A stretch of DNA of 51,523 nucleotides from Pyrinomonadaceae bacterium (GTDB lineage: Bacteria; Acidobacteriota; Blastocatellia; Pyrinomonadales; Pyrinomonadaceae). The DNA lies in contig JBGTKR010000491.1 of the NCBI GenBank assembly GCA_041744535.1, positions 1-51,523 on the forward strand, given 5' to 3'. A model generated the notes under the pieces. That model ran no database searches and had not been told where the DNA came from. It was given only the letters and a program-made list of their open reading frames with translations. The translations under genes were made by a program, and so were the position numbers. Below are positions 264 through 36,355 of the stretch, piece by piece; within the stretch, counting starts at the first letter, position 1; the number at the start of each line of letters is the position of its first letter.

Positions 264-923
264 TCAAACAAAGTATTTAAGTTTTTTCCCATCCGGTTCA
301 GTAATAGTTAAACGGTCAAACTGTAAGTTTTTATTTATTTCCACTTCTAGGATAGCGAAAACACCCGCCCCTCGTATTAGTTCAACACTCAACTTTCCTT
401 TTTTTATTCTGGCATTTCCAACAATTCCAATGTTGTCCTTGCTTGCCGAAACTAGAAGTTTGGCAAAAGATTTAACTTGATTAATAGCATCTTCTTTCGA
501 TTTTGCTTGAAAACCTTTTAGTATATTTGAGAATGATCCTGAGGGACGTATTACCCAATAATCACCCCATACAAAACTTTTTACTTCAGCAGTTCGCTTT
601 TCAGTAATTAGAATTAAGTCATGCTTACTCGCAGGTGGATCAATCAATACATTCATTTTGGCAATATAAAATTCATATTGGGGGAAATTTTGTCTTAACT
701 CAATCTGAATGTCTTCAGGTATTAGACAAAAATCTCCGCTAAATGAACTAGTAAAACTGTTTTTGGAATAATCTCGCAATTCTTGACTGGTTTCAAGAAA
801 TGTAATTATTTTATTGTTCGTGTTTTCAACCTGGTTTTCTTGTGCTATCACAAATGATGTATTCGTAAATAAAGCAATAACAAATGTCAATGCCAAGATA
901 TATATTCTAATACTAGGTTTCAT
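264..923 (-). CDS. Secreted hypothetical protein; candidate immunity protein for the orphan Rhs toxin tip
   Basis: The N-terminus MKPSIRIYILALTFVIALFTNTSFVIAQE is a classic signal peptide. The gene starts 11 nt after the stop of the orphan Rhs C-terminal cassette on the same strand. I recognised no motif. Confidence 0.55.
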   Translation of the reverse strand: MKPSIRIYILALTFVIALFTNTSFVIAQENQVENTNNKIITFLETSQELRDYSKNSFTSSFSGDFCLIPEDIQIELRQNFPQYEFYIAKMNVLIDPPASKHDLILITEKRTAEVKSFVWGDYWVIRPSGSFSNILKGFQAKSKEDAINQVKSFAKLLVSASKDNIGIVGNARIKKGKLSVELIRGAGVFAILEVEINKNLQFDRLTITEPDGKKLKYFV

Positions 924-933: not shown

Positions 934-1815
934 TCAATTTTTTGGGCGTTGAACTGTTGGTGGAGAAACTTTCGTTATTGTGGCAGAACCATCGCCCTTG
1001 ATAATAATATCATATTGAATGCTTGTATAGACAAAATGGGTTGTGTCTCCAACCTTTAATTGACCATTCGGCGGTGGCGGTTCATAGCGTTTGTCTTTTT
1101 GCCCAAGAATCTTACTTTCCACATCCAATCCCGTTTGATGTGCAGATTTACCACCGTTTTCACCTAAATCAAAGTTTGCACCCGGCTCTCTCATATCCAA
1201 CCCTTCAATAAGAGCATGACCAACCAATGCCTGAGCTAAATCAGTATCCTGATTATCAACAGAATAAATACTTGTAAAATTAAGGTTTCCTGCCCTGATA
1301 TTTTTATTTCCGCTACTATCTACCGTTGCTGAATTAAAAGCGGGCTTATTATCATCAATAAAGACAGTTTCACCACTACTGTTTCCATTAACAATACTTG
1401 AAGAAACATCAAATTTAGCAGTGCCACTCGCACCAGCTACTTTTTTAACTATATCTGCAAATTCCTTATTAACCTTGCCCGTAAAAGACTTATCCTTTTT
1501 AGAGCCAGTAATTCTATATACACCATTCTTTACTTTATATTTGAGCTTGAGACCAGATTTTTGTTCTAAATAGTCAATAAAATTTTGAGCTTGATCACCA
1601 GTCAACTCAATATTATTTCCTGATGGGTCTCTAAATTTTAGTGGATTATTCTGAACATAAGGATAACGATTAAAATTTTGTGGGTCTGCTGGTGTGAAAG
1701 GTCCTACATCAACACTTGTGAATCTGCCTAATTTATTTGCATACATTCTCGCCTGAGCAAAATCGAGGTCAGTTTCAATATCACGTTCATACGAGGTTAT
1801 GAACGTGCAATTCAA
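934..1815 (-). CDS. Orphan Rhs C-terminal cassette: end of the Rhs core plus an unknown toxin domain, with no N-terminal Rhs body
   Basis: It begins FITSYERDIETDLDFAQARMYANKLGRFTSVD...NNPLKFRDPSGN. This parallels FTSYERDTETDLDFAQARYYSNQHGRFTTVD...NNPLKYVDPDGE of the full Rhs gene. About 220 aa of unrelated sequence follow. The annotated Met is probably fortuitous. Confidence 0.75.
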   Translation of the reverse strand: MNCTFITSYERDIETDLDFAQARMYANKLGRFTSVDVGPFTPADPQNFNRYPYVQNNPLKFRDPSGNNIELTGDQAQNFIDYLEQKSGLKLKYKVKNGVYRITGSKKDKSFTGKVNKEFADIVKKVAGASGTAKFDVSSSIVNGNSSGETVFIDDNKPAFNSATVDSSGNKNIRAGNLNFTSIYSVDNQDTDLAQALVGHALIEGLDMREPGANFDLGENGGKSAHQTGLDVESKILGQKDKRYEPPPPNGQLKVGDTTHFVYTSIQYDIIIKGDGSATITKVSPPTVQRPKN

Positions 1816-1959: not shown

Positions 1960-2154
1960 TTGAAAGTCGCCGAGATTTTTAATGTCTCGGCAGACGAACT
2001 TTTAGGCAGAGAAACGAGCAAGCCGAAAGCCAGACCGACGGGCAAAGTCCAGCAGCTTTTTGAAGAAGTCTCCAATCTGCCGCGTCGTCAGCAGGATAAA
2101 GTGGTGGAGTTCGTTTCGGCGTTCGTTCGCCAGCAAAGGCAAGCCGAAAAGTGA
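1960..2154 (+). pseudogene. C-terminal remnant of an XRE-family HTH regulator
   Basis: KVAEIFNVSADELLG is the last helix of an HTH_3 domain. The preceding helices are absent, and the ORF opens with TTG with no upstream in-frame continuation. Confidence 0.45.
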
Positions 2155-2229: not shown

Positions 2230-2715
2230 TTAGTTAGTAATGCTCATTGATGCGGATTCAACATTGCAATCAATAATCTTCTTCGGTTTTTCACCCATAT
2301 TTTTAAAGGCTTTGAAATCTCCTTGTTTAGTAGCTACCGAGAGAAGTTTTGTTCTAGAACAACAGATTCTTGCAATTTGTAATGTTCCGTCGTTACCTTT
2401 GAACGCATATAAAAGCCACTCCGCATTTGGCTCAAAACCGTCAGTGCTTCCAGAAAGTTCTTTGACAATTACGAATTTTTCTAAATCTTCTTTCCAAGTT
2501 TGTTTTACTTCAAACTTTATTACAACGTCGTAGCTATCGGTATTTTCTTGACGAATTTCCTTTGCCTCAATTACTTTGCCAACAAATACAGCATCAGAGC
2601 GTTGAAAATGTTCTTGCACAGTTAACTCCGGCTCACAAGTGCATTGAGCAAAAATTTCGTCTGTTCCGAAACAAAACACGCCAATAATCAAGATACTAAA
2701 AATTATTATTTTCAT
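2230..2715 (-). CDS. Secreted TIMP/NTR-like protein; candidate immunity protein or inhibitor of the Rhs metalloprotease tip
   Basis: The likely start is the second Met (MKIIIFSILIIGVFCF..., a signal peptide). The mature N-terminus is (Q)CTCEPELTVQEHFQRSDAVFVGKV, followed by ...IKFEVKQTWKE... and ...WLLYAFKGNDGTLQIARICCS. This mirrors the TIMP N-domain pattern [25 protein letters not shown]...YEIKMTKMYKG...FLIAGKLQDGLLHITTC. The gene lies directly downstream of the Rhs stop. Confidence 0.6.
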   Translation of the reverse strand: MKIIIFSILIIGVFCFGTDEIFAQCTCEPELTVQEHFQRSDAVFVGKVIEAKEIRQENTDSYDVVIKFEVKQTWKEDLEKFVIVKELSGSTDGFEPNAEWLLYAFKGNDGTLQIARICCSRTKLLSVATKQGDFKAFKNMGEKPKKIIDCNVESASMSITN

Positions 2716-2745
2716 AACATTTGTCGAAGAAGGTAACCACAAGAA

Positions 2746-5700
2746 TTAGTCGATTATGATACCTTTACTCCGTTCTATTTGCCTTATAATTTTATTTCCA
2801 AAATAATGTGGAGACTCTTTTTTAGGGATTCGAGGTCCTCCAGGTTTCCCTTGTTTTGAAGGATGCCAAATATCATTTGAACCTGTTCCAGTTAGACCAG
2901 CTTGCACTTGCAACGGGTCTAAATCGTGTCTGGCTTCATGTCCAAAAACTGCTACCATTTTACCGTTAAGTCTTTCTCCAGAATATCCCAACTCTTCCAT
3001 CTTTTTCTCATAAAGTGTAATTGTTGCTTCTCTATAAGCCCCTTTTATCACATTTCCTTTATCATCAACAGCAGGATCGGCTTTACCGTCAAATTTGTCC
3101 GTTGTGCTGTTAAAAGTTACGGGTCCGTTTTTGTCATGAGGCTCGTGAAGACCAATGGTCGTTGAGCCTGTGTTAATTTCTTCTTGAGTCCTCGAAGTTG
3201 TTGAATCAATAACAAGATTTATCATTGTTTCGTGCTTGTTCAACTTCTTAAACATATTAGAGGCTGTTCTGCTTCCAGAATCGTTAATTAGATTTACCAA
3301 CTTTTGTAAATCTTTTGAGGCATTACCACTTTTAATAACCCATATTTTCTTACCATTTACTTTTTCTCTTTCAATTATAACTTCCTGATCGTCTGTCCCT
3401 TTAAATTTTTCGCCATCGGGATCAACGTATTTCAGAGGATTGTTTCTTGTATAGAGATAAAGATTTATAGCTTGTGGATCAACTAACCTTTTTACCTCCA
3501 ACATTATCGGATCAACTGTTGTAAAGCGTCCGTGCTGATTTGAGTAATATCTCGCCTGAGCGAAATCCAGATCCGTTTCGGTATCGCGTTCATACGAGGT
3601 AAATTTTTGTCTCAGTCCATCTTCCCCATAATTCAGATTTACATCTCTCTGTGCCGTGTGCGTCGAATCCAATTCTTCTCCAAACGGCATAAAATCCCGT
3701 CTGGAGAAAACTCTACCGTCTTTGTCCGTTGTAATTCGCGGGCTTCCCAAGTGATCCGATGTCAAATAACTTACCCGTGCCGTCTGTGTCGGTTCAACAT
3801 TCGTCGCATATTCTGCTACCATTTTACCTGATGCGTCGTACACAAAGATAGTTGTTTGTGTCGCCACATTGTTCGAGAATTCTATCTTCTTGACTCTTTT
3901 TCCATCTCCGTCATAGAAATATTCTCCGATTCTGTTGCCCGATGAATCCTTGACCAGAATTTGTTTGTTTTCCCCGTCATATGTGAATTCTCTTCCGCCC
4001 GGATCTTCTTCCGTATTTCCCGCATTGTCAAAGGTAAAGCCGTTCAACCGATTATTCGTCGTATCTGCCGCCGGATTATCCGCCGGACACACTAAATTCG
4101 GTTCAGTGCCGCAGGTTCTCGGCAAAGTCGTTGTCAGATATTGCCCGCTCTCGCTTCCTTCATTAAACGTGCGGTTGCCGTAGCGATCATAAACAAATTG
4201 CTGCTGCCAGCCTAATTGCACGGATTGTCCTTCCGTTTGGATATTTTCCTTCGCTATTTTGATGCGGTTTAATGAATCGTAAGTATAATACTGCGTTGCC
4301 GTAAAACCGGAAGTCGAGCCGGTTGTCGGGGTGGTTATTATCTGTCTGGCGACATTGCCGTTATTCGTTCCCGCCAAAACCGAACCATCCCAATTTAAGA
4401 CTCCATACTCAAAATTAAGTTTCAGCTTATCATCACCGCCCTGAACTGTTCCGAGTGCAATCTGTGTTGGCTGAAGTCTTGAATTAAACACGGCTGATTC
4501 CCATTTGCCGTTACCCAATTGCATCGAACTGACTGCGCCCGCTGCCGTGAATGTGAAATTCTTCGCATAATCCCAATATCCGGCATTCGCGTTCTTTTTA
4601 CTCTGAACAATCGAAAGCTCACCGTCATTATCTAGAATATTCTTGACGACTCTGCCTGACGGATATTTCTGCTCGACAAGTCCTCCCGACAGATTATAGA
4701 CATATTCCATCTCATTATAGGCGGTGCCGTCGGTCGTCTGTTTGCTTTTCGTTACTCTGCCAAGAATATCAAACTGCGTGTATTCAGTCTTGGAATACGA
4801 GTTTTCCACTTTTATCAACTGACCGACTACAGGCGCGGTTGTGCTGTAAGTATATGTTACATCCGGGGTCAAATCCGAATAATCTCTTAATGTTACGCGG
4901 TTCAATTCGTCGTAGCTGTAATCGGTTTTAACTCCTCTCGCATCCGTTTTCTCCGTAAGATTTCCATTATTATCATAAAGATACGAAATCGTTCCCGATT
5001 CGGGGTTAAATGCGGTTTTCAACCGCGACAGACTGCTGTATGAAAATGTCCTGTTCGTCTGTGAGCCTTGAATTACTTTTGTCAGATTATTCAAAGGGTC
5101 ATATTCATAACCCGTTTTATAACCGTTCAGACTAATTTGCGGACTTCCGAAAGTAATTCCTTCCGTAGCCGAATCCGCTGCCGTGATTTCCCAGACATCG
5201 GTCAACTGTCCCAAGGCATTCGTTTTGCTGATTCTCTGCTTTCCGGCTTGATCCGTAACCAATACTCTGTCCGCATCTATATCGGTTCTGACTTTCCCTG
5301 TTGAATTTGTGTTGTAGCCTGAGGTCAGGAAAGGATGTGGCAATGCTGCTCCCGTAAAGCTTTCCGTTTCCGAATATTTGCCCGTATTAATCGATTTCGA
5401 GCGTGTCCAGCCCATTGAATCTTCATTTGCCGCCTGGCTTGATGTTGCTGCCCGATACGGATTCGAGGTCAGCGTGTAGGAATAAGGATTCCCCATCTTA
5501 TACCGCGTCTGCACCTTGATCCCGTGCTGTTCGTTTGTCGGGTCTTCCGTCGCCGCATTCTCGATTCTTCTCGACAGCCGCACTCTGCCTAGTTCATCAT
5601 AATGCTGAACGGCAATTTTCTTCCCGTCGCCCTTTGTTTCAAGATCGCTTCGAACAATAACTCTTCTTAAAATATCGTTGTATTCAGTTGTCGTCCACAT

Positions 5701-8142
5701 CTCCAACGCCGTTCCTTGCGCTGCGATACTTTTTATCGGACGACCCAAATCATCATATTCGGTCGCATTCGTCAGATTATTATCGACATCCATCGCAGAT
5801 GTTACCAATCCCGTGTAAAAATCATACTGCATCGTCGAGGTTCTCTCGACAGATGTCTGGTAAGCTTTTTCAGTCTGTGTCGGATAAAGATTTGAATAGC
5901 CGTTAATTGAACCGTAAGTTAGATTTGTTACATAACCTTTCGGATCAGTTATAGTCAACGGATTTCCGTATTGATCGTAAGTAGTTAACGCAACTACTGC
6001 ATTTCCGGAATTTAGCCGAAAGCCGTTTCCGTCCGGGCTTGGGAAGGTTGCGGCTTTGGTTGAATCCCACTTTCGCGTTTGAGTCGGATTAGCCGTCGTA
6101 TCGGCATTATCATAGACAATTTCCGTGTGCGATACCGGCGTTAGGTTTGCGTGTTTGACAGTTGTTGATTTCACCGCATTATTGACTTTCTTCGCTGTTG
6201 AATTCCAATAGGAATTGGCATTATTCGCCGTCGAATTCGAGGCATCTTCCGTCGGATTATAATAGACATTTTCCGTAATCCTTTTTACGGTCGCTCCGCC
6301 CGGTATCCCTGTTATATTGCCTGACGAACTACCTGGCATTGCGCTGTATGCCATCCAATCATATTCCGTTATTTTTGTAACATTTCCGTTTTTGTCATAT
6401 TCATAATCCTTGATTGCCGTTAAAGACGGATTTCCGGCATTGTCGGGAATGGTCGTGAACTCCGTTTTGACGTATGTATTCAGCCGTCTCATCGAGCCGC
6501 ATCCGTAGCTCGGGCAACCTCCTACCTTATTGTTTGCCCATATTCTTTCGACAATTGTTCCGCCCGGACTGGTTTCCTTATATACTCTTCCGCTCAGGTC
6601 ATTATCGGTTGTCGTATTAGAAAATTTCTGTGTTGTTACGCCGCCGTCCGGTCCGGTAATTGTCGTTGTGCCGCTCTGACTTATTGAATAGAGCCATGTT
6701 TCGGTAACCTGTTGGGTATTTCCGTCATAATTGGTTTCGTATAAAAGTCTTTTTTCCTTTATCTTGCCCAATAAAGGAAGCAGGTCGTCTGTTCCGAAGG
6801 CGATTTGATGAGAATAATCATATTCCGCCTTTGCTCCAGATGGCAGAGTTACATCTATCAAGTCTCCCCAACCGGGCGAACTGTTCGGATTATTCGGATT
6901 CTGATTATATGCAACTTGTCCTTCGTGTCCGTTATAATTAAATGTATATTTCAATCCGCCTAATTGACTCGGAGTTTCTATCTCATCAATTACTTTGTGT
7001 TGGGCAACCATCACCTGATCGGAATAACAGCATTTTCCGATTCCGCCGCCTGCTCCCGAGGTTCTATAAGGTCTAATCACCGTAATATATTTCCATTTTA
7101 TTTTCCAGATGATCGGCGCTCCGTTAATCCCTAATTTATAAATATGATCTTCTGTCGAAGAAATAGCCTTTCTAGCTACATAACGTCCCATTTGGTCAAT
7201 ATATCCGGTTACGGTTGAGCTGTCAGGCAGGGTAACCTGACCTTTCGTTACAAAATTACCGTTTTCATCATAAACCCTCTGCGGCAAAACATTGCTTTGA
7301 GCATCCAATTCTCCGTTTGTAACTTTACTTCCGTCAGGCATGTAAATTGTCCACTGATTTATATTAGTCTGACCTTGTGGAATCTCGAGCCTCATAAAAG
7401 TTCCATCCGTGCTGTAATAAACCATTGCCGGATTCGGATCTATACTCGGTACAACATATGTGCTGTAAGAAGGATTTCCATCACACATCGTGCTTGCTCC
7501 AGACGTTGTCCATATCAATGTATTTATTTCTCCCGTGGGACTTACATTAAAATAACCATCTCCGAGATATGTTGGATTTCCACTTGAATTGTAAATTGAG
7601 TCTGAATAACCTGTCGGGCGAAATTCATGTTGCGAGCCGTCAGGAAAATAAACCATAAGTTTAAAAACATAAACTCCAGCATAATTAGGTTCCTCACATC
7701 CGCCACCGACTTGAACCGGCTGATCCAGTTCATCATTGCGATTAATAACTCTTATTTCATAATCCCCGTCGTATTTCCATCCGCCTTCATAATCAGGGCG
7801 AATAAATTTTTGAGGCTTTAAATCTCCATTCAGATCAAGAGTTGTCATCACATGAGATTCATACAACTTACTGTTGTATTTCAACGATATTCCCTGCTGC
7901 GCCGTCCCGCGACCTCTGACACTGCCGAACCCAAAATTGAACATCAGATTGCCATTGGTCGTGTTAATTGATTCGATATCGGAAATCGCGTAAGGAATTC
8001 CCGGCTGGAAGTTTTGTTGAGAATGTTTATCCTGTGCCTGAATACCCGAATGTCCGGCTAATAACAAACAAATTAAACTAAAGACCATCGTGAAAATTTT
8101 CCGATCTAACGCCGACACTAAACTTGATTTGAATCTATTCAT
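2746..8142 (-). CDS. Rhs/YD-repeat polymorphic toxin with Sec signal peptide and C-terminal HExxH zinc-metallopeptidase toxin domain
   Basis: The signal peptide is MVFSLICLLLAGHSGIQAQ. There are dozens of YD repeats (YDENGN, YEYDKNGNVTKI, YDQYGNPLTI, YDDLGRPIKS, YLYDNNGNLTEK and others). The core ends at DPxG (YVDPDGE, about 3413-3424). A 218-aa tip follows, containing FGHEARHD (HEARH at 2926-2940). Confidence 0.95.
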   Translation of the reverse strand: MNRFKSSLVSALDRKIFTMVFSLICLLLAGHSGIQAQDKHSQQNFQPGIPYAISDIESINTTNGNLMFNFGFGSVRGRGTAQQGISLKYNSKLYESHVMTTLDLNGDLKPQKFIRPDYEGGWKYDGDYEIRVINRNDELDQPVQVGGGCEEPNYAGVYVFKLMVYFPDGSQHEFRPTGYSDSIYNSSGNPTYLGDGYFNVSPTGEINTLIWTTSGASTMCDGNPSYSTYVVPSIDPNPAMVYYSTDGTFMRLEIPQGQTNINQWTIYMPDGSKVTNGELDAQSNVLPQRVYDENGNFVTKGQVTLPDSSTVTGYIDQMGRYVARKAISSTEDHIYKLGINGAPIIWKIKWKYITVIRPYRTSGAGGGIGKCCYSDQVMVAQHKVIDEIETPSQLGGLKYTFNYNGHEGQVAYNQNPNNPNSSPGWGDLIDVTLPSGAKAEYDYSHQIAFGTDDLLPLLGKIKEKRLLYETNYDGNTQQVTETWLYSISQSGTTTITGPDGGVTTQKFSNTTTDNDLSGRVYKETSPGGTIVERIWANNKVGGCPSYGCGSMRRLNTYVKTEFTTIPDNAGNPSLTAIKDYEYDKNGNVTKITEYDWMAYSAMPGSSSGNITGIPGGATVKRITENVYYNPTEDASNSTANNANSYWNSTAKKVNNAVKSTTVKHANLTPVSHTEIVYDNADTTANPTQTRKWDSTKAATFPSPDGNGFRLNSGNAVVALTTYDQYGNPLTITDPKGYVTNLTYGSINGYSNLYPTQTEKAYQTSVERTSTMQYDFYTGLVTSAMDVDNNLTNATEYDDLGRPIKSIAAQGTALEMWTTTEYNDILRRVIVRSDLETKGDGKKIAVQHYDELGRVRLSRRIENAATEDPTNEQHGIKVQTRYKMGNPYSYTLTSNPYRAATSSQAANEDSMGWTRSKSINTGKYSETESFTGAALPHPFLTSGYNTNSTGKVRTDIDADRVLVTDQAGKQRISKTNALGQLTDVWEITAADSATEGITFGSPQISLNGYKTGYEYDPLNNLTKVIQGSQTNRTFSYSSLSRLKTAFNPESGTISYLYDNNGNLTEKTDARGVKTDYSYDELNRVTLRDYSDLTPDVTYTYSTTAPVVGQLIKVENSYSKTEYTQFDILGRVTKSKQTTDGTAYNEMEYVYNLSGGLVEQKYPSGRVVKNILDNDGELSIVQSKKNANAGYWDYAKNFTFTAAGAVSSMQLGNGKWESAVFNSRLQPTQIALGTVQGGDDKLKLNFEYGVLNWDGSVLAGTNNGNVARQIITTPTTGSTSGFTATQYYTYDSLNRIKIAKENIQTEGQSVQLGWQQQFVYDRYGNRTFNEGSESGQYLTTTLPRTCGTEPNLVCPADNPAADTTNNRLNGFTFDNAGNTEEDPGGREFTYDGENKQILVKDSSGNRIGEYFYDGDGKRVKKIEFSNNVATQTTIFVYDASGKMVAEYATNVEPTQTARVSYLTSDHLGSPRITTDKDGRVFSRRDFMPFGEELDSTHTAQRDVNLNYGEDGLRQKFTSYERDTETDLDFAQARYYSNQHGRFTTVDPIMLEVKRLVDPQAINLYLYTRNNPLKYVDPDGEKFKGTDDQEVIIEREKVNGKKIWVIKSGNASKDLQKLVNLINDSGSRTASNMFKKLNKHETMINLVIDSTTSRTQEEINTGSTTIGLHEPHDKNGPVTFNSTTDKFDGKADPAVDDKGNVIKGAYREATITLYEKKMEELGYSGERLNGKMVAVFGHEARHDLDPLQVQAGLTGTGSNDIWHPSKQGKPGGPRIPKKESPHYFGNKIIRQIERSKGIIID

Positions 8143-8212: not shown

Positions 8213-9442
8213 TTATCTTCGGTAAATCGCCGGAACGGGAATATCTCCTGACACGCCCCACTGCACGATTCGCGTCGAGGAATCCGCGCTGTTTCTGATA
8301 TACCACGTCCCCGTCGACGCTCTCCACACCGCTATATCAACTTTGCCGTCTCCGTCGTAATCGTTCTGAACGGCTTCGTCTCCTGATTGCTGCCAACTGA
8401 TTGTTTGGGTTTGATTATTTGAGCTATAAAGGAAATCCCAATCAGCTCCGCTTCTCAGAGCATAATCAGCCTTGCCATCGCCGTCGTAATCCCCCGGCAC
8501 CGGCTTATCTCCGCTTTGTCCGAATTGTGCCGTCTGCAGTTGTGAGTCGCTACTTCTCAAAATGTAGTATGTTCCCGGATTTCCCTCTCTCCAGACAGCA
8601 ATATCGGCTTTCCCATCGCCGTCGTAATCGGCTGCCACAGGTATGTCCGAAGCAAGTCCGAATGAAACAGTATAAAAGCTGTAATCGGTGCTTCTTTGGA
8701 TATACCAGACTCCGCTGCGGAAAAAGGCAATGTCCGTTTTTCCGTCGCCATCGTAATCGGCTTGAGCAAGCTGATCTCCGCTTTGTCCGAACTGGAGAAC
8801 GGTATAGCCGGAAGGATTGGAACTCGGCTGAATATACCAATTGCCTTCCGATGGTCGAAAGACACAGAAATCGGTTTTGCCGTCACCGTCGTAGTCTCCC
8901 GGAGCCGCTTTATCTGTGGAAAGTCCCCACTGAACAGTGGTCTGCTGTGAACCTTGTCCGCCAAGAACCCACCAAACACCGGTCGAAGGTCGCCAGACCG
9001 CCAGATCAGCCGGCGGCACGGCGGAAGCATTAGCGTCCTCAACCGCTAATAATTTGCTCCCGGCATATAAATATTCCTTCGATAATTGCGGTGTCGGAGT
9101 CGGTGAAGGCATTGGAAGAAAAGGGTTTATCCGGTTGAATAAGGATTTATTGTCCGATGTCAATTGTCCGTTTTGCAATTGTCTTTTAGCATCGTCTTCC
9201 AAATATTTCAGACCCGCTCCAAACGCTCCGAGCGAGAGGAACACAATTATCCCCACTACCAGCCAATGCTGTTTCAGATACGAAAGGTTCAGTTTTCCGA
9301 TAACTCCCGTTGTTTCGTTTTTCTGGGAAGCAGTCGTTAGATTCGTTTTTCCCCTGAATTCAGAATTTTTAATACCTTCTGTTAACCCGGTTTCGATCAG
9401 AGCTTCGGCTTTGAGCGCATTTCTTCTTTTCTTTTTCGACAT
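8213..9442 (-). CDS. Single-pass membrane protein with FG-GAP/VCBS-type repeats
   Basis: The N-terminus is basic, followed by a TM segment (WLVVGIIVFLSLGAFGAGL). There are six or more repeats of DYDGDGK(T/A)D(I/F)AV(W/F)R...G.WYI. At DNA level this gives a periodicity of about 130-137 bp. Confidence 0.85.
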   Translation of the reverse strand: MSKKKRRNALKAEALIETGLTEGIKNSEFRGKTNLTTASQKNETTGVIGKLNLSYLKQHWLVVGIIVFLSLGAFGAGLKYLEDDAKRQLQNGQLTSDNKSLFNRINPFLPMPSPTPTPQLSKEYLYAGSKLLAVEDANASAVPPADLAVWRPSTGVWWVLGGQGSQQTTVQWGLSTDKAAPGDYDGDGKTDFCVFRPSEGNWYIQPSSNPSGYTVLQFGQSGDQLAQADYDGDGKTDIAFFRSGVWYIQRSTDYSFYTVSFGLASDIPVAADYDGDGKADIAVWREGNPGTYYILRSSDSQLQTAQFGQSGDKPVPGDYDGDGKADYALRSGADWDFLYSSNNQTQTISWQQSGDEAVQNDYDGDGKVDIAVWRASTGTWYIRNSADSSTRIVQWGVSGDIPVPAIYRR

Positions 9443-13114: not shown

Positions 13115-16100
13115 CTAAAATTCCGAAAATCCTCCGAAGGGGATAAAAGCAGCCCAGTAATACGGGTTACGAAACTGCGTATTTTCACCTTCAAGTAGAT
13201 CTATCTGCGCCCGGCGCAGGGCTGCCGGCGTCGAAAGCTTTTCCAGTTTGCGATAGCGATGAAAACGTATCATCAGCTCCGCGGTCGAATCCGAATCAAC
13301 CTTCCACTGACTGGCGACAATAACCGGAACTCCTAAAGCCAAAAAAGTCCGGGCTGCTCCAATCATTCCCTCACCCTCATAAAAGCGTTCGACCCCGGTT
13401 TCACAAGCTGAAAGAACAATGAGTTGTGTATCTGAAAGTTTTCCCTCAAAGATTTCATAATTAGCGAGAACCGAATCCTTCTTTTCCCGCGTCTGTACGT
13501 TTTCCGCCAGGACAAGGGCGGAAAATAGAGGATTTTTTTGATCGACAACATAATGCCCGGCAAAATGCACCACATCCGCTTTTGACAAATTCTCTTTTAC
13601 CATCTTTTTTGAGGCATCCTTTCCCGTCAATAGAACCGTCGTTTTGTAGAACCGAGAAATCTCCCTTGCTTCCCATTCAGCCGAATCGAGATCAGCTAAA
13701 TCCGCAAACTCTTTTCGACTAAATGACGGATTCCCGATACTGAGCAGGGTTTCGTCCGTATTTTCGAACAACTCACGCGCTCTTTTGGAACTGTTTAAGA
13801 AAACATTGGCACTTGGCGACAGGAACAGGTTGTATTTAGTAATAAAAAACCTATTCTCCCCCGGTGAAATAAGGGCGGCAACAGATAGATGAAATAATAT
13901 CTTGTCGGGAATCAGACAGACCTTTTTTCCCCCGTCCAGTTTTTCTTCTACCGGGCTGATCAGTATTTGGTAAAGTTCTCTGGCTAAAGCGTCCCGCTCG
14001 TTTGCTTGCGGGTGATTGCTGATTGAAATCAAAGCCAAAAATTTTCTGACTTTATCCTCCAAAGCCGGGGCGGAAATATCCGTTTTATAGACGCTGAATT
14101 CCTCTTTTGTCAGCAGCCAGATCAGGGTTTTATCGCCGAGGACAGAGTACTGGATGATTTGCACATCTTCGGGCATCATCGCCCTGATCTCAGACAGTTT
14201 TAGCGGTTCGGCAACATTTAAAGAAAATTTAATTTCAGGATTTAGCCCTTCCTTTGAAATTTCGACAGCAGCATTTTGGAGATCCAGGAGGGAACGCGAA
14301 CGGGATTCTTCGGAATAATCAAAAGCTCTTTCATAATTTTGTTTTTCAAATTCGTAATTAGTAGCGATATCGTAAACGCTCTGTTCCTTGTCAAAAAAGA
14401 GATTCCGGTTCTGTTCCTCCAAAATCTTTGTCCGGTATTCGCGGAAAAGACTCAAAATAACCGGAAGTTCCCCTTCAAAACCGGAATCGTCGTTGGTCTC
14501 GGAGTAGCAGAGCAAGCGTCCCTTATGAGCTTCATAGCGATTTATTTGAAATTCTCCGGTTTCGTAAAAAGTAAGAGCTTTTTCATAATTTTGTAACGCC
14601 TGCGAACAGTCTTTTGCCTGTCGCTGGATATGTGCCGTCTGCAAATCGGCATAAGCATTGCTTTTCTTCTTTAATGCCTCATCGGTAAATTCTTCTGCCA
14701 CTTTCCGCCCCTTATCGAATGAGCTAAAAGCTTCCTCATATTTCCCCTGAGTCCCGTAAATGAGTCCCAGGTCTATATACGATGAGTAAACGAACGAATC
14801 TACCCGCAGGGCTTTCGCCAATATCAAAGATTCATTTCTGTAAGTTATTGCCGCATCATATAATTTCATTGCCAGAAATATGCCTGATACGGCGTAGAAA
14901 TCTCTCCATTTTTGGCGGTCGCTGGATTCCGGAAAAGCGGCTAAAAAAAGACCTTTTTGGGCAAAAACGAGAGCCTCATTATTGTCGCCAAGCCGCCGAT
15001 AAACGTCGGCTTGCTGCAAAAGAGATTTTTGCTCGTTAAAAAGATCAAAAACCTGCCCGGAATACTCAATCGCTTTCCGGTTATATTCAATAGCCCCGGA
15101 CAAATCTTTTGAAATCACCCCATTGTTTGCGAGCCAGCCGAAAACGTGCGAAGCCAGCCAGTAGTATTTATTGCTTTCACAAAAATCGGATAATTCCTGA
15201 AGAATCCGCGTACTGTTATCAATCTGGTTGAGCCGGTTTAGAGAATACCCGATCCAGTAATCGCAAAACCGGGCTTCCCAGATATTTTTAGATTTTTCAA
15301 AAAGAGCACGGGCGCGGGTAAACTCGGCAAGCGCCTTCTGGTGATTGTTTAGCCCGATTTGTTCATATCCTTGGCGGACTGAATTATTTGCCTCTTTGAG
15401 ATCGACCATCTGAGAGGGTGTCGCGGCAGCGTAAAACTTTGCGATATCTAAAAAAAACAGATCACGCGACCTGTTTTTTTCAAGTTCTCCGATATACGTC
15501 ATCGCCGATAAATACTTCGGTTTATCAGTGCCTTCAGCTTCCAAAAATAAAAAAATAAGCTGTTGCGGGATCAATTTTCCGGTTATCATCTCCCGATTTC
15601 GACTGACAATCCGGTAAGCCGTTTCATCATCCGCGTTGTGGTAGGCAGAAAAAAAATCCTGCAGAAGTTGTTGCGGGGTTTTGCTCTGTTGCCGGTTGAA
15701 TTCGAGCAGTTTTAAATTATTACGAGCCTCGTCCGCCCAGGGCGAGAAAGAGTCTTTTTCCAGATATTTCTGCCAAGCTTCTCGTGCCTGCTGAGCAAGT
15801 CCCATTTTTTGCAAAATTAAAGCCCGGTTGAAAAGTGCTTCGGGCAGCGAGTCATTAATTTCTAAAGCCCGGTTGAAGGCTTCAAGACTTTTTGCCTTAT
15901 TTACCAAGCTCTCGTCAAATTTTTTGTCCGCCTCCTCTAGTTTGGATTTCTCCAGAAGAGTGGCACCGATGTCGCTGTGGAGCGCGGCATTATCCGGTGC
16001 CAGCGTTAGGGCGAGGTTAAATTCTTTTAATGCCTCATCGAATTTTTTGTCCGCTAAAAACAATAGCCCGAGCGCGTGATGGGCTTGCGCGTCCGTTTCA

Positions 16101-16768
16101 TTTAAGGTCGCGTCCAGCAGAAACCGTTCGGCGCGGCGATATGCCCGCTGATCCGCGGCAGCAGGGTCGGAGCCGCGGGTTTCCGACATCGGAGCGTAAT
16201 CAAAATTCACCGAAAGGCGCGGCTCGACGGGGCGCTGCCCGCGGTAGGCAAGGCGAAGCTGGGCAATTCCCCGGTCAACATCCGATTGATAAAACGCTAC
16301 CCGCCAAACGCCTAAGACGAGAAATCCCGCAATCAGAATTACGGCGGCGAACCGGACAGTCGCCGTAGAAAACAGCTGCCGCCAGAAAAAACCCGCTCTT
16401 TTTTCTTGAACCGGTTCTTTTAGGTTTTGCGTTTTATTTTTGCCGGCATATTTTTGCAAATTTCGGATGAGCTGAAGTTTTTCCTGACGTTCGGGAAGAA
16501 TCAGAAAAAATCTGAGAAAATGCTCCCGTTGCGACTGAGTGAGATCGCCGTCCAGATAATTTTCAATCAATTCGTCTTCGGCGACGGATATTTTTTCATT
16601 GAAATCATCATCAACCATAATTTTTTCTTCGAATTGGCGCATTTTCGTTTCATCAGCCAGGTTTCCCAGCAGGTAGTCCCTGATCGCCGATTGCTCATCC
16701 AAATCATCTTTTATCTCCTCTTCACCCTTCTTCATAACATAATGACCAAAATTAAAAAAACCTCTCAT
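13115..16768 (-). CDS. Anti-sigma-like N-domain, TM segment, TPR array and CHAT (caspase-like) protease
   Basis: I place the start at the Met whose ATG overlaps the sigma-factor stop as ATGA (16765-16768). The N-terminus reads IRDYLLGNLADETKMRQFEEKIMVDDDF...LIENYLDGDL. The TM segment is VRFAAVILIAGFLVLGVW. A long TPR-like region follows. The C-terminal CHAT dyad is VVHFAGH...LIVLSACETG. Confidence 0.85.
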   Translation of the reverse strand: MRGFFNFGHYVMKKGEEEIKDDLDEQSAIRDYLLGNLADETKMRQFEEKIMVDDDFNEKISVAEDELIENYLDGDLTQSQREHFLRFFLILPERQEKLQLIRNLQKYAGKNKTQNLKEPVQEKRAGFFWRQLFSTATVRFAAVILIAGFLVLGVWRVAFYQSDVDRGIAQLRLAYRGQRPVEPRLSVNFDYAPMSETRGSDPAAADQRAYRRAERFLLDATLNETDAQAHHALGLLFLADKKFDEALKEFNLALTLAPDNAALHSDIGATLLEKSKLEEADKKFDESLVNKAKSLEAFNRALEINDSLPEALFNRALILQKMGLAQQAREAWQKYLEKDSFSPWADEARNNLKLLEFNRQQSKTPQQLLQDFFSAYHNADDETAYRIVSRNREMITGKLIPQQLIFLFLEAEGTDKPKYLSAMTYIGELEKNRSRDLFFLDIAKFYAAATPSQMVDLKEANNSVRQGYEQIGLNNHQKALAEFTRARALFEKSKNIWEARFCDYWIGYSLNRLNQIDNSTRILQELSDFCESNKYYWLASHVFGWLANNGVISKDLSGAIEYNRKAIEYSGQVFDLFNEQKSLLQQADVYRRLGDNNEALVFAQKGLFLAAFPESSDRQKWRDFYAVSGIFLAMKLYDAAITYRNESLILAKALRVDSFVYSSYIDLGLIYGTQGKYEEAFSSFDKGRKVAEEFTDEALKKKSNAYADLQTAHIQRQAKDCSQALQNYEKALTFYETGEFQINRYEAHKGRLLCYSETNDDSGFEGELPVILSLFREYRTKILEEQNRNLFFDKEQSVYDIATNYEFEKQNYERAFDYSEESRSRSLLDLQNAAVEISKEGLNPEIKFSLNVAEPLKLSEIRAMMPEDVQIIQYSVLGDKTLIWLLTKEEFSVYKTDISAPALEDKVRKFLALISISNHPQANERDALARELYQILISPVEEKLDGGKKVCLIPDKILFHLSVAALISPGENRFFITKYNLFLSPSANVFLNSSKRARELFENTDETLLSIGNPSFSRKEFADLADLDSAEWEAREISRFYKTTVLLTGKDASKKMVKENLSKADVVHFAGHYVVDQKNPLFSALVLAENVQTREKKDSVLANYEIFEGKLSDTQLIVLSACETGVERFYEGEGMIGAARTFLALGVPVIVASQWKVDSDSTAELMIRFHRYRKLEKLSTPAALRRAQIDLLEGENTQFRNPYYWAAFIPFGGFSEF

Positions 16769-17334
16769 GCCCCATTTTCTGCAACGCATCCGATCACGCA
16801 TTTCTTTAGGCTGCGGCGGATCCGTGAGGCTTTGACCTGGAAGGCAGTTTCACTGATTCCCAAGTTTTTTCTCATTTGTTTCCGGTGCCGGATTTTTACA
16901 CTTTTTTCGCCCTGGTAATACTCAATTATAAATTCTCGCTGCCGCTCGGGCAGAGTTTTCATACAATCTTCCAAGCATTTGTATTCAATTTCTGAATCTG
17001 TTTCGGTATTCTGATGGTGTATGATGGACGGTTCCATTTTTTTCAGTCTTTTCTGCTTTCTGAGCCATTCGAGATAGATTTTATTTGCCACCCCATAAAA
17101 ATAAAATCCCGGCTCGCCGGTGTAGCTGTCAACGATATGCGACAATTTTAGTGCAACGCGGCTGATTGTTTCGTCCGCCAACTCCTCTGCTTCGAAACAA
17201 CCGCGACCGGCAAAAACACGAATCAACCGCTGACGGATTTTTTCGTATTTTTGCCCGGCAGTTTCCTGATCCAGGTCAAGCCATCCGAGAAGGGAGTGAA
17301 AGCTTTCCCGTGTTACTGTATCTTCTTTAACCAT
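16765..17334 (-). CDS. ECF-type sigma-70 family RNA polymerase sigma factor
   Basis: Region 2-like sequence is IRQRLIRVFAGRGCFEAEELADETISRV...YFYGVANKIYLEWLRK. Region 4 is LPERQREFII...LGISETAFQVKASRIRRSLKKC. The start is set at MVKEDTV, because the upstream 44 codons look like non-coding read-through. Confidence 0.8.
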   Translation of the reverse strand: MVKEDTVTRESFHSLLGWLDLDQETAGQKYEKIRQRLIRVFAGRGCFEAEELADETISRVALKLSHIVDSYTGEPGFYFYGVANKIYLEWLRKQKRLKKMEPSIIHHQNTETDSEIEYKCLEDCMKTLPERQREFIIEYYQGEKSVKIRHRKQMRKNLGISETAFQVKASRIRRSLKKCVIGCVAENGA

Positions 17335-23283: not shown

Positions 23284-24474
23284 TTACCACATCATCACGG
23301 CGGTCTCCTCTTCTCGTTCAGCGTAATAAAGCCGAATGCGAAGAACGTATTTCTTCCCGCTGAACAGTTTCACCTTCAAATAGGCATTTCGGTCTTCGCC
23401 CCCATCGTCATCGCCGGCAAGATAACGAAGTTTTTCGCCGTCGCGTTCAAATAAAACCATCACGGTGTCGGACGCGCCGAACGTGCGGATTTCGTAATTT
23501 CGGGTTGCCTGGGGTTCGATCTCGAAGTTTTTCTGCTCGCCGGGAGCAATCGACAGCCTTACTGATTCCGCAGGTTTGAGTTTCGGGAAACCGCCTGCTT
23601 TTAGAGGTGGATAAAATGATTTGACCCAGGATTTGTCCCTAACAGAAAGTCCTCCGGCAGGTCTTATTCCGTTTGCGTGAAAATGTGCCGGTTCTTTTAT
23701 AAGTCCCGGTTCAAACGGATAATGCATAATTGAGTTCGGGTCCCATTCGGATCCCTGGACTGTGTCGGGCGAGATTTTTCTTATAATATTATGAAAGGTC
23801 GTCTCTCTGCTCCACCTGTTCGGCGGTTTGGCAAGGGCGGCATAAACGGCTTCCTCGTCCCACGCGATGCCGGCGATCGGATTTTGATGCTCGTGCGGGA
23901 AACCCAAAGTGTGACCGATTTCATGGATAGCCGTATCAATCTCTCCGGGATGGCTCGTTAAATCCCAGCCGAAATTCATAGTCCGCTCGCTGCGCCCGAG
24001 ACCGAGATCAATAATATCGCGTCCGACAAATGACCAGGCACCGTCTTTCCGCTCAAATCCGATGCGGATTTCCGCCTCATCCCTGGAACTGACCTCCTTA
24101 AAATTCAGACCGATGCCGGCTGCCTTCCATGCATCAAAAGCCTGTCGCACCACATCCATTTCCCGTTTGGTCGTTTTCCACGCCCGCCACTCCTTTTTAC
24201 CGGTTGCCATCGTTACATGCCGCCCATCTCCTTCCTCATTAAAAAAATAATAATGGAGGGTTGTTCCATTAACCCATTTTTTCCCGTTTATAATGATTAA
24301 ATCCAATCTGCCTGGGTTGAGACCCGCCGCAAATTGCGGGGCGGAAACCATCGGGATTGAACAATATGCAGGAAAACCTGTTTCCGCCGGTTCGCTTTCG
24401 GAAATTGGCGGCTTTATTACGGGTTCACTTTTTGCAGCTTTTTTTGTTTTGCTTTTGTTGCTTTTTTTTGTCAT
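23284..24474 (-). CDS. Astacin-family (M12A metzincin) metallopeptidase with C-terminal PPC-like domain and no recognisable signal peptide
   Basis: HEIGHTLGFPHEHQNP matches HExxHxxGxxHE. SIMHY is the Met-turn. The C-terminus YEIRTFGASDTVMVLFE...GDDDGGEDRNAYLKV...YVLRIRLY resembles a pre-peptidase C-terminal domain. The N-terminus is Lys-rich (MTKKSNKSKTKKAAKSE) and not hydrophobic. Confidence 0.85.
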   Translation of the reverse strand: MTKKSNKSKTKKAAKSEPVIKPPISESEPAETGFPAYCSIPMVSAPQFAAGLNPGRLDLIIINGKKWVNGTTLHYYFFNEEGDGRHVTMATGKKEWRAWKTTKREMDVVRQAFDAWKAAGIGLNFKEVSSRDEAEIRIGFERKDGAWSFVGRDIIDLGLGRSERTMNFGWDLTSHPGEIDTAIHEIGHTLGFPHEHQNPIAGIAWDEEAVYAALAKPPNRWSRETTFHNIIRKISPDTVQGSEWDPNSIMHYPFEPGLIKEPAHFHANGIRPAGGLSVRDKSWVKSFYPPLKAGGFPKLKPAESVRLSIAPGEQKNFEIEPQATRNYEIRTFGASDTVMVLFERDGEKLRYLAGDDDGGEDRNAYLKVKLFSGKKYVLRIRLYYAEREEETAVMMW

Positions 24475-34965: not shown

Positions 34966-36285
34966 GAGCCTGTAAAACAGATTGTGTAACTGCCCGTTTT
35001 ACAAATGCGGAGCCAGTTGCTCCTCGAACTCAATGGCGAAGCGGTTCATCGCCTGTTTCCAGTTTTTGATCGGCATCGTCCATTTCTTAGATGCTGCCTG
35101 GGTCGCCAAAAAGACCAGCTTCAATGCCGATTCGTCATTCGGGAATATTTTTCTCTTTTTCGTCGCTTTTCTGATCACGGAATTTAATGACTCGATCGCA
35201 TTGGTCGTATAAATAGCTTTACGAATTTCCTCAGGATAGTCAAAGATCGTGATCAGATTTGCCCAATGGGCGTTCCACGATTTGGCGATATTCGGATATT
35301 TTTCATCCCATTTTTCGGCAAATCGCTCCAGTTCAATCCGCGCCTCTTCTTCCGAAGCCGACTTGTAAATGCTTTTCAGATCGGCAGTTACCGCCTTGTA
35401 ATCCTTCCAACTGACATATCTCAGAGAATTTCTCACCATATGAATGATGCACAATTGAACTTTTGCATTCGGATATTCGACCTCGATCGCTTCGGGAAAA
35501 CCGCTCAAGCCGTCAACACACGCGATCAGAATCTGCTCGAGTCCACGATTCTTTAGTTCGGTCAGAATCGAGAGCCAGAATTTTGCGCCTTCCGTTTCCG
35601 AAATCCACATTCCCAAAAGTTCTTTCTGTCCGTCTAAATTAACCCCCAGTGCCAGATAAACAGACTTTTTGATCACCCGTTTATCCTGCCGAATCTTCAA
35701 AACGATGCAGTCCAGATAAACGATCGGATAAACCTCGTCGAGCGGTCGGTGCTGCCACTCTCTGACCTGTTCGATTACAGCATTCGTCACCTGTGAAACA
35801 AGTCCGGCAGAGACATTTGCGCCATACATCTCTTCAAATGCTTCGACAATCTCGCGCGTCGAAAGTCCTTTGGCATACAGACACAGAATCTGCTCATCCA
35901 TCCCGGTAATCCGGGTTTGTCCTTTTTTAATGATCTCCGGTTCAAAGCTGCCTAACCGATCACGCGGAGTTTCGATTCGCACTTCGCCGTGATCGCCTTT
36001 GACGATTTTCGGCGTGGTGCCGTTACGGCTGTTTCCCGTATGATGCCCTGCCGGAGAATACGGCGGATAACCGAGATGATTTTCCATCTCGGCTCTCATG
36101 GCAGCTTCGACGGTCAGTTTGACTAATTTGGCTGATAAAGAACTCAAATCCTCGCCTGTTTTAATATCCTTAGCCAGCTCGCCGGCTAATTGCTTCAATT
36201 TCTCTTCTTGTGTCTTGTTCATTTATTTACCTCTCTTTTTAGATTAATTTTTAATGAACAGTTACACAATCTGTTTTACAGGCTC
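34966..36285 (-). mobile_element. Complete IS256-family insertion sequence (1320 bp)
   Basis: The 27-bp IRs are perfect: gagcctgtaaaacagattgtgtaactg (34966-34992) and cagttacacaatctgttttacaggctc (36259-36285). The transposase ORF is intact, and 8-bp direct repeats flank the element. Confidence 0.95.
34999..36222 (-). CDS. IS256-family transposase
   Basis: The ORF is an uninterrupted 407 aa. It contains ...EAAMRAEMENHLGY..., ...VYLDCIVLKIRQD..., ...ACVDGLSGFPEAI..., ...CIIHMVRNSL... and ...TTNAIESLNS..., the typical mutator/IS256 blocks. Confidence 0.95.
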   Translation of the reverse strand: MNKTQEEKLKQLAGELAKDIKTGEDLSSLSAKLVKLTVEAAMRAEMENHLGYPPYSPAGHHTGNSRNGTTPKIVKGDHGEVRIETPRDRLGSFEPEIIKKGQTRITGMDEQILCLYAKGLSTREIVEAFEEMYGANVSAGLVSQVTNAVIEQVREWQHRPLDEVYPIVYLDCIVLKIRQDKRVIKKSVYLALGVNLDGQKELLGMWISETEGAKFWLSILTELKNRGLEQILIACVDGLSGFPEAIEVEYPNAKVQLCIIHMVRNSLRYVSWKDYKAVTADLKSIYKSASEEEARIELERFAEKWDEKYPNIAKSWNAHWANLITIFDYPEEIRKAIYTTNAIESLNSVIRKATKKRKIFPNDESALKLVFLATQAASKKWTMPIKNWKQAMNRFAIEFEEQLAPHL

Positions 36286-36293
36286 CTTTTGAT
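36286..36293. repeat. Right copy of the 8-bp target-site duplication of the IS256 insertion
   Basis: cttttgat follows the right IR directly. Confidence 0.85.
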
Positions 36294-36355
36294 ATTTTTT
36301 GATGAAACCAAACGCAACCAACTTCTAAGCGAGGTAGTGTCCTAATAATGTGTTG

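Follow-up and report, generated by a model that had tools for sequence, protein, structure and literature searches.

The locus described here raises a simple question: why should a bacterial gene for a protein that resembles the animal tissue inhibitors of metalloproteinases (TIMPs) lie directly behind the gene of an Rhs toxin whose end carries an HExxH motif? It is found on contig JBGTKR010000491.1 (assembly GCA_041744535.1) of a Pyrinomonadaceae bacterium, of which one stretch of 51,523 nucleotides (nt), hereafter the window, was analysed; all positions are given in window numbering unless another locus is named. The locus is best explained as an Rhs polymorphic toxin-immunity module of a Pyrinomonadaceae-like soil acidobacterium. 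An earlier note, made from the sequence alone, had read the tip of the toxin as an HExxH metalloprotease and its neighbour as an immunity protein that adopted the TIMP mechanism. We find that the neighbour is, by sequence profile and predicted fold, a homologue of TIMPs, and that it accompanies one clade of tips in every locus compared, so that the pairing is best described as the Rhs toxin-immunity theme played with an unclassified HExxH tip and an immunity protein recruited from a prokaryotic branch of the TIMP family. The way in which it would block the tip is discussed below; several features of its sequence argue for a mechanism that is at least modified.

The Rhs toxin gene and its neighbour

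The features on which the argument is built are the following (a slash marks a predicted signal peptidase cut; aa, amino acids; NTR, netrin-like domain; ORF, open reading frame).

2746-8142, minus strand: gene of the Rhs/YD polymorphic toxin (1798 aa and a stop codon), from the ORF and its translation
8035-8142, minus strand: predicted Sec signal peptide of the Rhs protein, residues 1-36, ...GIQA/QDK
2749-3411, minus strand: C-terminal toxin tip, 221 aa past DPDG, an unclassified HExxH zincin-like domain
2926-2940, minus strand: HEARH, putative zinc-binding and catalytic motif, read from the sequence (FGHEARHD)
2230-2715, minus strand: TIMP/NTR-family immunity candidate, 161 aa plus stop codon, starting 30 nt past the stop codon of the Rhs gene
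2647-2715, minus strand: predicted Sec signal peptide of the immunity protein, residues 1-23, ...DEIFA, with the predicted signal peptidase I cut between A23 and Q24
2635-2646, minus strand: predicted mature N-terminus Q24-C25-T26-C27, registered to Cys1 and Cys3 of TIMPs
2359-2364, minus strand: vicinal Cys118-Cys119 (...ICCSRTK...), invariant; C119 aligns with Cys99 of TIMP-1

The Rhs protein runs from its signal peptide through a shell of RHS repeats (Pfam PF05593, RHS_repeat, E 5e-18) to an Rhs-associated core (NCBIfam TIGR03696, Rhs_assc_core, 53.3 bits where the cut-off is 32.5) that ends at ...NPLKYVDPDG. By profile, this end aligns with the place where the core ends in Rhs and TcC proteins of solved structure, and in the tip alignments it is past DP(D/N)G that the tips diverge. 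A tip behind the DPxG boundary is thus present as the earlier note had it, but with a length of 221 aa and not 218.

The neighbouring protein belongs to the TIMP family

Read from the ATG at 2715, the neighbouring protein has 161 aa and begins MKIIIFSILIIGVFCFGTDEIFAQCTCEP..., followed by SDAVFVGKV, IKFEVKQTWKE and WLLYAFKGNDGTLQIARICCS; these motifs, like HEARH (2940-2926) and C-T-C (2643-2635) on the same minus strand, are where the earlier note had placed them. The mechanically called ORF opens at a TTG at 2742 (170 aa), and we retain the ATG as start codon because all 30 aligned homologues align from there. These homologues come from a word-index search that returned 32 relatives, almost all from soil metagenomes and from metagenome-assembled genomes (MAGs) of Pyrinomonadaceae and Acidobacteriota, of which 30 were aligned.

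The Pfam TIMP model (PF00965) aligns residues 24-73 of the protein to its positions 2-52, with an E value of 3.2e-4, and matches 24 of the 30 aligned homologues, at best with E 1.1e-7; the homologues P0011 and P0013, as well as one Bacillus relative, carry a precomputed PF00965 hit. When the family is compared by hhalign with the N-terminal domains of human TIMP-1 to TIMP-4 (N-TIMPs), the alignment starts at Cys1 and extends over 97 columns with 35% identity (81% probability, E 1.2e-5). Searches of PDB sequences are less sensitive to this likeness: phmmer with the single sequence of 161 aa gives no match, and hmmsearch with the family profile retrieves TIMP-2, from C1 onward, weakly (E 0.2). 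NCBIfam offers no meaningful family for the protein.

The predicted structure points in the same direction. In the AlphaFold model of the immunity protein the mean predicted local distance difference test (pLDDT) is 84.5, and a Foldseek search of the PDB with this model ranks TIMP-2 and TIMP-1 on top. All 19 PDB matches at E <= 1e-3 are TIMP-1 or TIMP-2, agrin NtA, the NTR domain of Meteorin-like or that of PCOLCE, with a best target-normalised template modelling score (TM) of 0.63; generic oligonucleotide/oligosaccharide-binding (OB) folds such as RPA and SSB rank lower, with a query-normalised TM of about 0.3. By these matches the model is an OB-type barrel of five strands with helices at its flanks that stands nearer to NTR domains than to generic OB folds; the unrelated OB fold that the earlier note had named as a refuting outcome did not come up among the significant matches. 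Judged by sequence profile and by predicted fold, the TIMP likeness of the immunity candidate is true homology, and the resemblance to the TIMP NTR domain first seen in a few motifs is borne out by Pfam, hhalign and Foldseek together.

This homology is not restricted to the window and its close relatives. A HMMER scan of 1.84 billion representative proteins with the family profile returned 4,240 clusters at E <= 1e-3, of which 311 at E <= 1e-10, and the most conserved feature across these roughly 4,200 clusters is the N-terminal C-x-C right after the signal peptide. In distant members (among P0098-P0193) the signal peptide ends ...A/C-S-C, with Cys-x-Cys at the predicted mature start; when aligned together with human TIMP-1 and TIMP-2, these members keep C1, C3, a ...SASCGY... 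that corresponds to Cys70 and a ...NLCSRT... that corresponds to Cys99. Named members are few (Bacillus, Paenibacillus, Nitrosopumilaceae). Those of Bacillus and Paenibacillus bear the UniRef label "Tissue inhibitor of metalloproteinase", the archaeal ones are in Nitrosopumilaceae, and the genome matches fall in Acidobacteriota and in one Rickettsiales MAG.

The literature places TIMPs elsewhere. A review of the family describes it as expressed in all Metazoa, in a text that contains neither prokaryotes nor bacterial homologues (PMC9409782), and in another article TIMPs are called an ancient eukaryotic family (PMC4860685). A paper of 2021 on Listeria states that no literature record of bacterial TIMP-like proteins was found (PMC8235301), and neither TIMP nor netrin occurs in the polymorphic-toxin catalogue of 2012 (PMC3482391). 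When TIMP-type immunity proteins were sought in the literature, all hits were false ones, among them the TimP toxin and the author name Timperley.

Some side observations concern the prokaryotic family. Many members end in a hydrophobic tail, which could be a membrane anchor. TIMP-like homologues that stand alone are often found in arrays of small exported proteins and look like orphan immunity genes. More TIMP-like paralogues of the A/C-x-C type occur in arrays of toxin cassettes or of small ORFs, namely at 2160-2672 of L030, as an ORF of 100 aa in L008 (...PVSA/CMC...) and at 2402-2983 of L015; one such paralogue lies directly upstream of another Rhs fragment, and in L015 two TIMP-like genes are in tandem.

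The TIMP-like gene follows one clade of tips

Loci containing relatives of the tip or of the 161-aa protein were collected, and all of them were searched by tblastn with the tip, the TIMP-like protein and a second downstream protein. Wherever the tip is 67-78% identical to that of the window, a TIMP-like gene stands directly downstream on the same strand; this is so in 6 of 6 distinct loci (the window, L001, L004, L027, L028 and L030), with a gap of 30-54 nt between the tip and the TIMP-like gene. The pairing holds for tips carried by full-length Rhs proteins (L001, L027) as well as for orphan C-terminal cassettes (L004, L028, L030), and both partners have diverged to a similar extent, the TIMP-like proteins being 72-82% identical.

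By contrast, the tips that are at most 62% identical to that of the window are followed by an unrelated immunity protein in 9 of 9 loci, and by a TIMP-like gene in none (0/9). These loci are L007, L010, L017, L018, L020, L021, L022 and L023, to which is added the second cassette of L030, where both cassette types lie side by side. The alternative immunity family is recognised by the motif ...NNHxYHF...LKxFKxINC..., is present as a single gene or tandemly duplicated, and has no Pfam model. Its copies are located as follows.

Alternative immunity copies, each in the numbering of its own locus: L007 1236-2255; L010 3425-4006; L017 3104-3619; L018 3436-4476; L021 1543-2640; L030 4465-5037; L031 4096-4587

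The tip family extends to Rhs proteins of Bacteroidota (Chryseobacterium, Flavobacterium), and downstream of the Chryseobacterium tip the gene is again of the alternative type. In Acidobacteriota and Bacteroidota alike, every divergent member of the tip family has the alternative family as its partner. Since the tip family reaches Bacteroidota, and Chryseobacterium carries there the alternative type, the alternative family is probably the older partner, and the TIMP-type protein probably a replacement that occurred in one acidobacterial subclade of tips.

From this synteny we infer that the TIMP-like gene is the cognate immunity gene of the tip. The earlier note had assigned it this role from its place just behind an Rhs toxin; the position now gains weight from a partition by tip clade in which the two immunity types never exchange.

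The tip resembles a divergent zincin

Tip residues are numbered here from the Pro of PDG, and the alignments comprised first 12 and then 15 tips. Among the 14 close homologues, the invariant residues are F110, Y129, A132-T135 (in Y-x-E-A-T-I-T), F159-G-H161-E162-x-x-H165-D166, D168, Q171 and H186. Over all 15 tips compared, F110, G112, Y129, A132-I134, F159, H161, E162, H165 and D166 are still invariant, so that H-E-x-x-H-D is kept in 15 of 15 tips with identities down to 31%; beyond F-G-H-E-x-x-H-D and the Y-x-E-A-T-I-T strand there is little conservation across the tips.

The AlphaFold model of the tip is predicted with high confidence (pLDDT 93, predicted TM 0.90) and has HExxH where a long helix (148-167), preceded by a region of beta-sheet, reaches its C-terminal end. 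The tip has no family match in Pfam, searched with the single sequence and with 12 members, nor in NCBIfam, PHROGs or PDB sequences. A Foldseek search of the PDB with the model gives nothing significant, the best match being YbeY/AQ_1354 (E 0.07), together with catalytic domains of M1 aminopeptidases; against BFVD the matches, also weak, are to a phage "Zn-dependent protease" and to SprT-like, BepA-like and M34 proteins (E 3e-3 to 0.8). As all these weak matches are zincin types, the model fits a very divergent zincin.

The N-terminus and the cysteines of the immunity protein

The earlier note placed the mature end of the immunity protein at or next to its first cysteine. This Cys is preceded by Gln in 29 of 29 members of the subfamily of the window protein (column statistics); before the Gln stands A, G or S, with one V, and three residues before it T, S, A, G, V or L. 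Because the (-3,-1) rule fits A/Q across the subfamily, the predicted cleavage is A/QC and not AQ/C; the latter was rejected, since Q would then be at -1 and F, Y or S at -3. A lipoprotein was rejected as well, as ...IFAQC is not a lipobox. The early placement of the mature end stands as regards the register, C25-x-C27 aligning to C1 and C3 of TIMPs, but with a predicted cut between A23 and Q24 the Cys becomes residue 2.

Around this N-terminus, conservation alternates. Q24, C25, C27 and P29 are invariant or nearly so, and positions 26, 28 and 30 rank with the most variable columns of the alignment; by alignment, positions 26 and 28 are residues 2 and 4 of TIMPs, which in TIMP-1 occupy the S1' and S3' pockets of the protease (PMC3003256). 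Further variable patches at 87-92 and 115-117 would correspond, by alignment again, to the C-D connector and the E-F loop of TIMPs. As for the other cysteines, the equivalent of Cys99 is C119, so that the Cys3-Cys99 pair is in register with TIMPs; the third disulfide of N-TIMPs is absent in the subfamily.

A separate observation concerns the signal peptides of these acidobacterial loci at large. Gln occupies +1 of the best (-3,-1) site in about 12 of about 15 non-TIMP Sec signal peptides, for example IQA/QDK, VIA/QEN, SIA/QSR, VSA/QPI, SFA/QQV, DFA/QLP, TWS/QQP and AYS/QKD, in a small sample biased towards toxin and immunity genes, with heuristic sites read by eye (the window at 8035-8142, 264-923 and 2647-2715, L001, L003, L004, L007, L014, L015 and L030). 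This pattern looks like the "Q-rule", which yields pyroglutamate N-termini and was published as specific of Bacteroidetes (PMC5837995).

How toxin and immunity protein would meet

Signal-peptide-like N-termini are found on the Rhs protein, on the TIMP-like protein and on most copies of the alternative family (L010, L007, L030, L031). Because the partners carry such N-termini, the encounter of the toxin with its immunity protein, and with its target, would take place outside the cytoplasm. This fits the suggestion of the earlier note that both partners are exported and that the target is in the envelope or periplasm.

On the observed gene order, homology, predicted fold and synteny partition, a proposal can be built for what the sequences leave to interpretation, i.e. 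the protease activity, the site of action, the immunity function and the binding mode. The Rhs protein would be exported by Sec, and its tip of 221 aa would act as an HExxH metallopeptidase on a target of the envelope or periplasm. The TIMP-type protein would bind this tip one-to-one in the periplasm, having displaced in one tip subclade an older and unrelated immunity family. Its disulfide-tethered Q-C-x-C-x-P segment and the loops next to it would be wedged into the cleft of the protease, and specificity would be set by the variable residues at the TIMP-equivalent positions 2 and 4. Compared to TIMPs it would show two departures: the N-terminal Gln, possibly converted to pyroglutamate, and a Cys1 tether moved to the vicinal Cys-Cys. 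In outline, i.e. an exported Rhs with a zincin-like tip, a periplasmic immunity protein of the TIMP/NTR family and a TIMP-like wedge, we regard this explanation as probable, without holding it firmly. For its parts, a TIMP-like mechanism of inhibition is plausible here, and among the possible binding modes the chances of an active-site wedge seem about evenly balanced.

Weighing the proposal

A number of observations, gathered in this section, weigh against this proposal. To begin with the homology, the 161-aa protein scores 21.0 bits with PF00965, just under the gathering score of 23.1, so that in the profile check suggested in the earlier note the homologues and hhalign point to the family, with the protein's own score falling slightly short.

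The N-terminus is a more serious matter. TIMPs chelate the zinc of their target through the amine and the carbonyl of Cys1. In the subfamily of the window protein, the predicted mature Cys is probably residue 2, behind Gln or pyroglutamate; besides, the equivalent of TIMP Cys70 is absent, and the adjacent C118 of Cys118-Cys119 is in its place. The inhibition of matrix metalloproteinases by TIMPs is severely reduced if Cys1 is blocked or extended (PMC3003256). Since an invariant Gln precedes the Cys and an N-terminal extension weakens TIMPs, the canonical bidentate chelation of zinc by Cys1 is unlikely here; a ridge-in-cleft mode may still apply.

The partner is unusual too. Measured against the metzincin motif HExxHxxGxxH/D, HEARHDLDPLQ lacks both the Gly (+3) and the His or Asp (+6), a conserved downstream Met that could form a Met-turn is absent among the tips, and Pfam gives the tip no metzincin match: on these sequence features the tip is not a metzincin. 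To our knowledge, metzincins are the only protease clan known as TIMP targets. What the earlier note said of the tip as HExxH metalloprotease is therefore kept for the motif, which is invariant and lies on a confidently predicted helix, but the tip does not belong to the clan that TIMPs are known to inhibit. Taken together, the Gln before the Cys, the replacement of Cys70 and the non-metzincin tip argue for a modified mechanism at least.

These three features (the predicted Gln or pyroglutamate end, the rearrangement of the Cys1-Cys70 tether that builds the TIMP ridge, and a target that is no metzincin) also lend themselves to another explanation, in which the TIMP-like protein does serve as cognate immunity protein but acts otherwise than a TIMP, by an exosite, by capping or by another face of the OB barrel, Cys-x-Cys being there a structural disulfide staple. 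Related tips are paired with an entirely different family, so no one binding mode is required, and the OB-fold inhibitor potempin A works by a different, bilobal mechanism (PMC9890683). Such an explanation has more difficulty with the alternation at the N-terminus, where the fixed Q24, C25, C27 and P29 and the hypervariable 26, 28 and 30 have the pattern of a strand that shows alternate side chains to a partner, although this variability is weak evidence of an interface because loops vary more than cores in any protein. It also has difficulty with the C-x-C after the signal peptide, whose rank as the most conserved feature of the whole prokaryotic family suggests a functional N-terminus, and with the fact that ADAM17 and ADAMTS-4/-5 tolerate TIMP-3 extended by one or two N-terminal residues and are still inhibited by it (PMC3003256). 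We hold this explanation to be rather unlikely, though it survives better than the two that follow.

A second alternative bears on the tip, which might not be a peptidase at all: HExxH would then serve another metal-dependent activity, as in a YbeY-like nuclease or another hydrolase, or none, and the partner would be no protease inhibitor. The tip belongs to no Pfam or NCBIfam peptidase family, its zincin fold matches are not significant (E 0.07 in the PDB, 3e-3 in BFVD) and the best of those in the PDB is precisely YbeY/AQ_1354, a metal-dependent RNase. Nor can D168 or H186, which the most divergent members have lost, be assigned as the third zinc ligand. On the other hand, both immunity families mostly bear signal-peptide-like N-termini, which indicates an action outside the cytoplasm, where RNA is no target, and the Glu of HExxH is invariant, unlike in YbeY, whose motif is HxxxH. 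The remaining weak fold matches are all peptidases (M1, phage Zn-protease, SprT-like, BepA, M34), and an inhibitor recruited from a family of metalloprotease inhibitors fits a peptidase. We consider a non-peptidase tip very unlikely.

Lastly, TIMP-like homologues of less than about 60% identity stand alone without a tip (L003, L008, L014, L015), and in three Bacillus-type loci inspected (L024-L026) there is no secreted protease beside the TIMP-like gene. The idea that the TIMP-like gene is no immunity gene, but codes for a general secreted protease inhibitor or another protein that travels with the cassette, protection being provided otherwise or unneeded, might draw on the many family members (acidobacterial paralogues, Bacillus) without any toxin gene, but it is hardly credible in view of the perfect partition (6/6 versus 0/9), of a gene that stays with the tip even in orphan cassettes devoid of an Rhs body, of tight same-strand gaps with no other candidate ORF before the next cassette, and of the resemblance of the stand-alone homologues to orphan immunity genes.

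What the pairing means

If the exported zincin-like tip and its TIMP-type immunity protein are what we propose, several consequences follow. Thousands of prokaryotic TIMP homologues lie in databases without a known function, and the locus of the window gives one subfamily of them a concrete partner and a role that can be tested. The repertoire of polymorphic toxins gains one immunity family and, putatively, one metallopeptidase toxin domain. It gains as well a clean case of displacement of the immunity gene inside one toxin family.

Should the N-terminal ridge work in spite of its departures from TIMPs, it would tell how much change the TIMP mechanism can bear (an extended N-terminus, a moved disulfide, a non-metzincin target), which bears on the engineering of selective TIMPs. 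A wider idea, which we put forward tentatively and would not yet favour, is that the TIMP fold is an old and widespread prokaryotic invention, one role of which would be periplasmic immunity against metallopeptidase toxins that bacteria pass to one another, and which would block here the active site of a non-metzincin zincin through a modified ridge of (Gln or pyroglutamate)-Cys-x-Cys. If true, TIMP inhibition would extend beyond metzincins and beyond animals, and this would bear on the source of the animal TIMPs.

Other genes of the window

The surroundings of the module contain the following features.

264-923, minus strand: 219-aa immunity candidate belonging to the orphan cassette; its signal peptide reads ...SFVIA/QENQ
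934-1815, minus strand: orphan Rhs C-terminal cassette, 293 aa, with a core remnant ...SYERDIETDLDFAQARMY...FRDPSG and an unrelated tip
1960-2154, plus strand: short ORF resembling the C-terminal part of a helix-turn-helix (HTH) regulator, just past the TIMP-like gene and on the opposite strand
8213-9442, minus strand: 409-aa protein of FG-GAP repeats, anchored in the membrane by its N-terminus (Pfam FG-GAP_3, E 5.7e-24)
13115-16801, minus strand: TPR-CHAT protein, 1228 aa
20905-22116, minus strand: patatin-like phospholipase
23284-24474, minus strand: astacin/matrixin-like metzincin, 396 aa, with HEIGHTLGFPHEH and a SIMHY Met-turn, no evident signal peptide
34999-37536, minus strand: two transposase genes (Mutator family and IS1-like)

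A membrane-anchored FG-GAP protein is encoded directly upstream of every full-length Rhs gene, i.e. in the window, in L001 (3372-4541) and in L027 (599-1738), and the L027 copy has a faint match to TcdB_toxin_midN. This protein may be a partner for the delivery or the assembly of Rhs, reminiscent of TcB. In a domain scan that covered 20 ORFs of the window (19 of them 150 aa or longer, with several more of that size outside the scan), no domain of a type VI secretion system (T6SS) was found.

Neither protein of the orphan cassette (934-1815, 264-923) has a Pfam family, and the cassette itself is typical of an array of orphan toxin cassettes, like those of L004 and L030. At the same position as the HTH-like ORF of the window, L028 has a HTH_3 gene of 96 aa (1560-1850). 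The metzincin of the window was considered as the true partner of the TIMP-like protein and rejected, as it is 20 kb off, shows no evident signal peptide and does not occur in the related loci.

Comparison with known systems

Rhs proteins with metallopeptidase tips are already known. Those with Tox-MPTase1-5, HopH1/NleD-M91 or PVC-metallopeptidase tips (PMC3482391), and the Rhs-M91 of Salmonella Dublin (PMC13556075), share with the window protein the order RHS repeats, core, HExxH tip. Tox-MPTase domains are small and zincin-like, described as distant relatives of Wss1/SprT, and for Tox-MPTase1-5 the 2012 catalogue lists no immunity family (PMC3482391). The window tip model also gives weak SprT-like matches; however, the tip matches none of their Pfam models.

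A functional precedent for the proposed action in the periplasm is VgrG2b of Pseudomonas aeruginosa, an antibacterial effector whose C-terminal zinc-metallopeptidase is toxic there and against which the cognate immunity protein PA0261 protects (PMC6899460); unlike the Sec-exported Rhs of the window, it is a VgrG fusion delivered by a T6SS. The VgrG2b structure is not among the 50 Foldseek matches listed for the tip model.

Small exported inhibitors encoded beside their protease are found with AprI/APRin, the inhibitor of the alkaline protease of Pseudomonas and Serratia, and with potempin A of Tannerella. In AprI/APRin the zinc is coordinated by the N-terminal residue. Neither AprI/APRin nor potempin A has a sequence relation to TIMPs, and both guard the secreting bacterium against its own virulence protease rather than against a toxin delivered by contact. 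Potempin A shares with the immunity candidate an OB-fold barrel, but acts in a bilobal rather than an N-terminal manner (PMC9890683).

Closer in gene order is the Mtz-Tim pair of Listeria monocytogenes (PMC8235301), where a metallopeptidase gene is followed by a TIMP-fold gene, both products are exported and both affect the cell envelope. The likeness of Tim to TIMPs is in the predicted structure only (Phyre2 confidence about 60 to >90%) and not in the sequence; moreover Tim is a lipoprotein, cleaved and released by Mtz and not shown to inhibit it. Mtz, unlike the tip, is a metzincin, and the pair is of phage origin, outside of any polymorphic toxin system.

With the N-domain of animal TIMPs (PF00965, MEROPS I35) the 161-aa protein shares a homologous profile, the predicted fold and secretion. 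It also shares Cys-x-Cys near the mature start, a (S/A)D(A/V)VF-x-GKV strand equivalent to SDLVIRAKF of TIMP-1, the register of Cys3-Cys99 and, genetically, the pairing with an HExxH enzyme. It differs from animal TIMPs in being prokaryotic and single-domain, with a Gln before Cys1, a vicinal Cys-Cys for Cys70 and no third N-TIMP disulfide. Its partner is a non-metzincin, and its proposed role is interbacterial immunity and not the regulation of matrix turnover.

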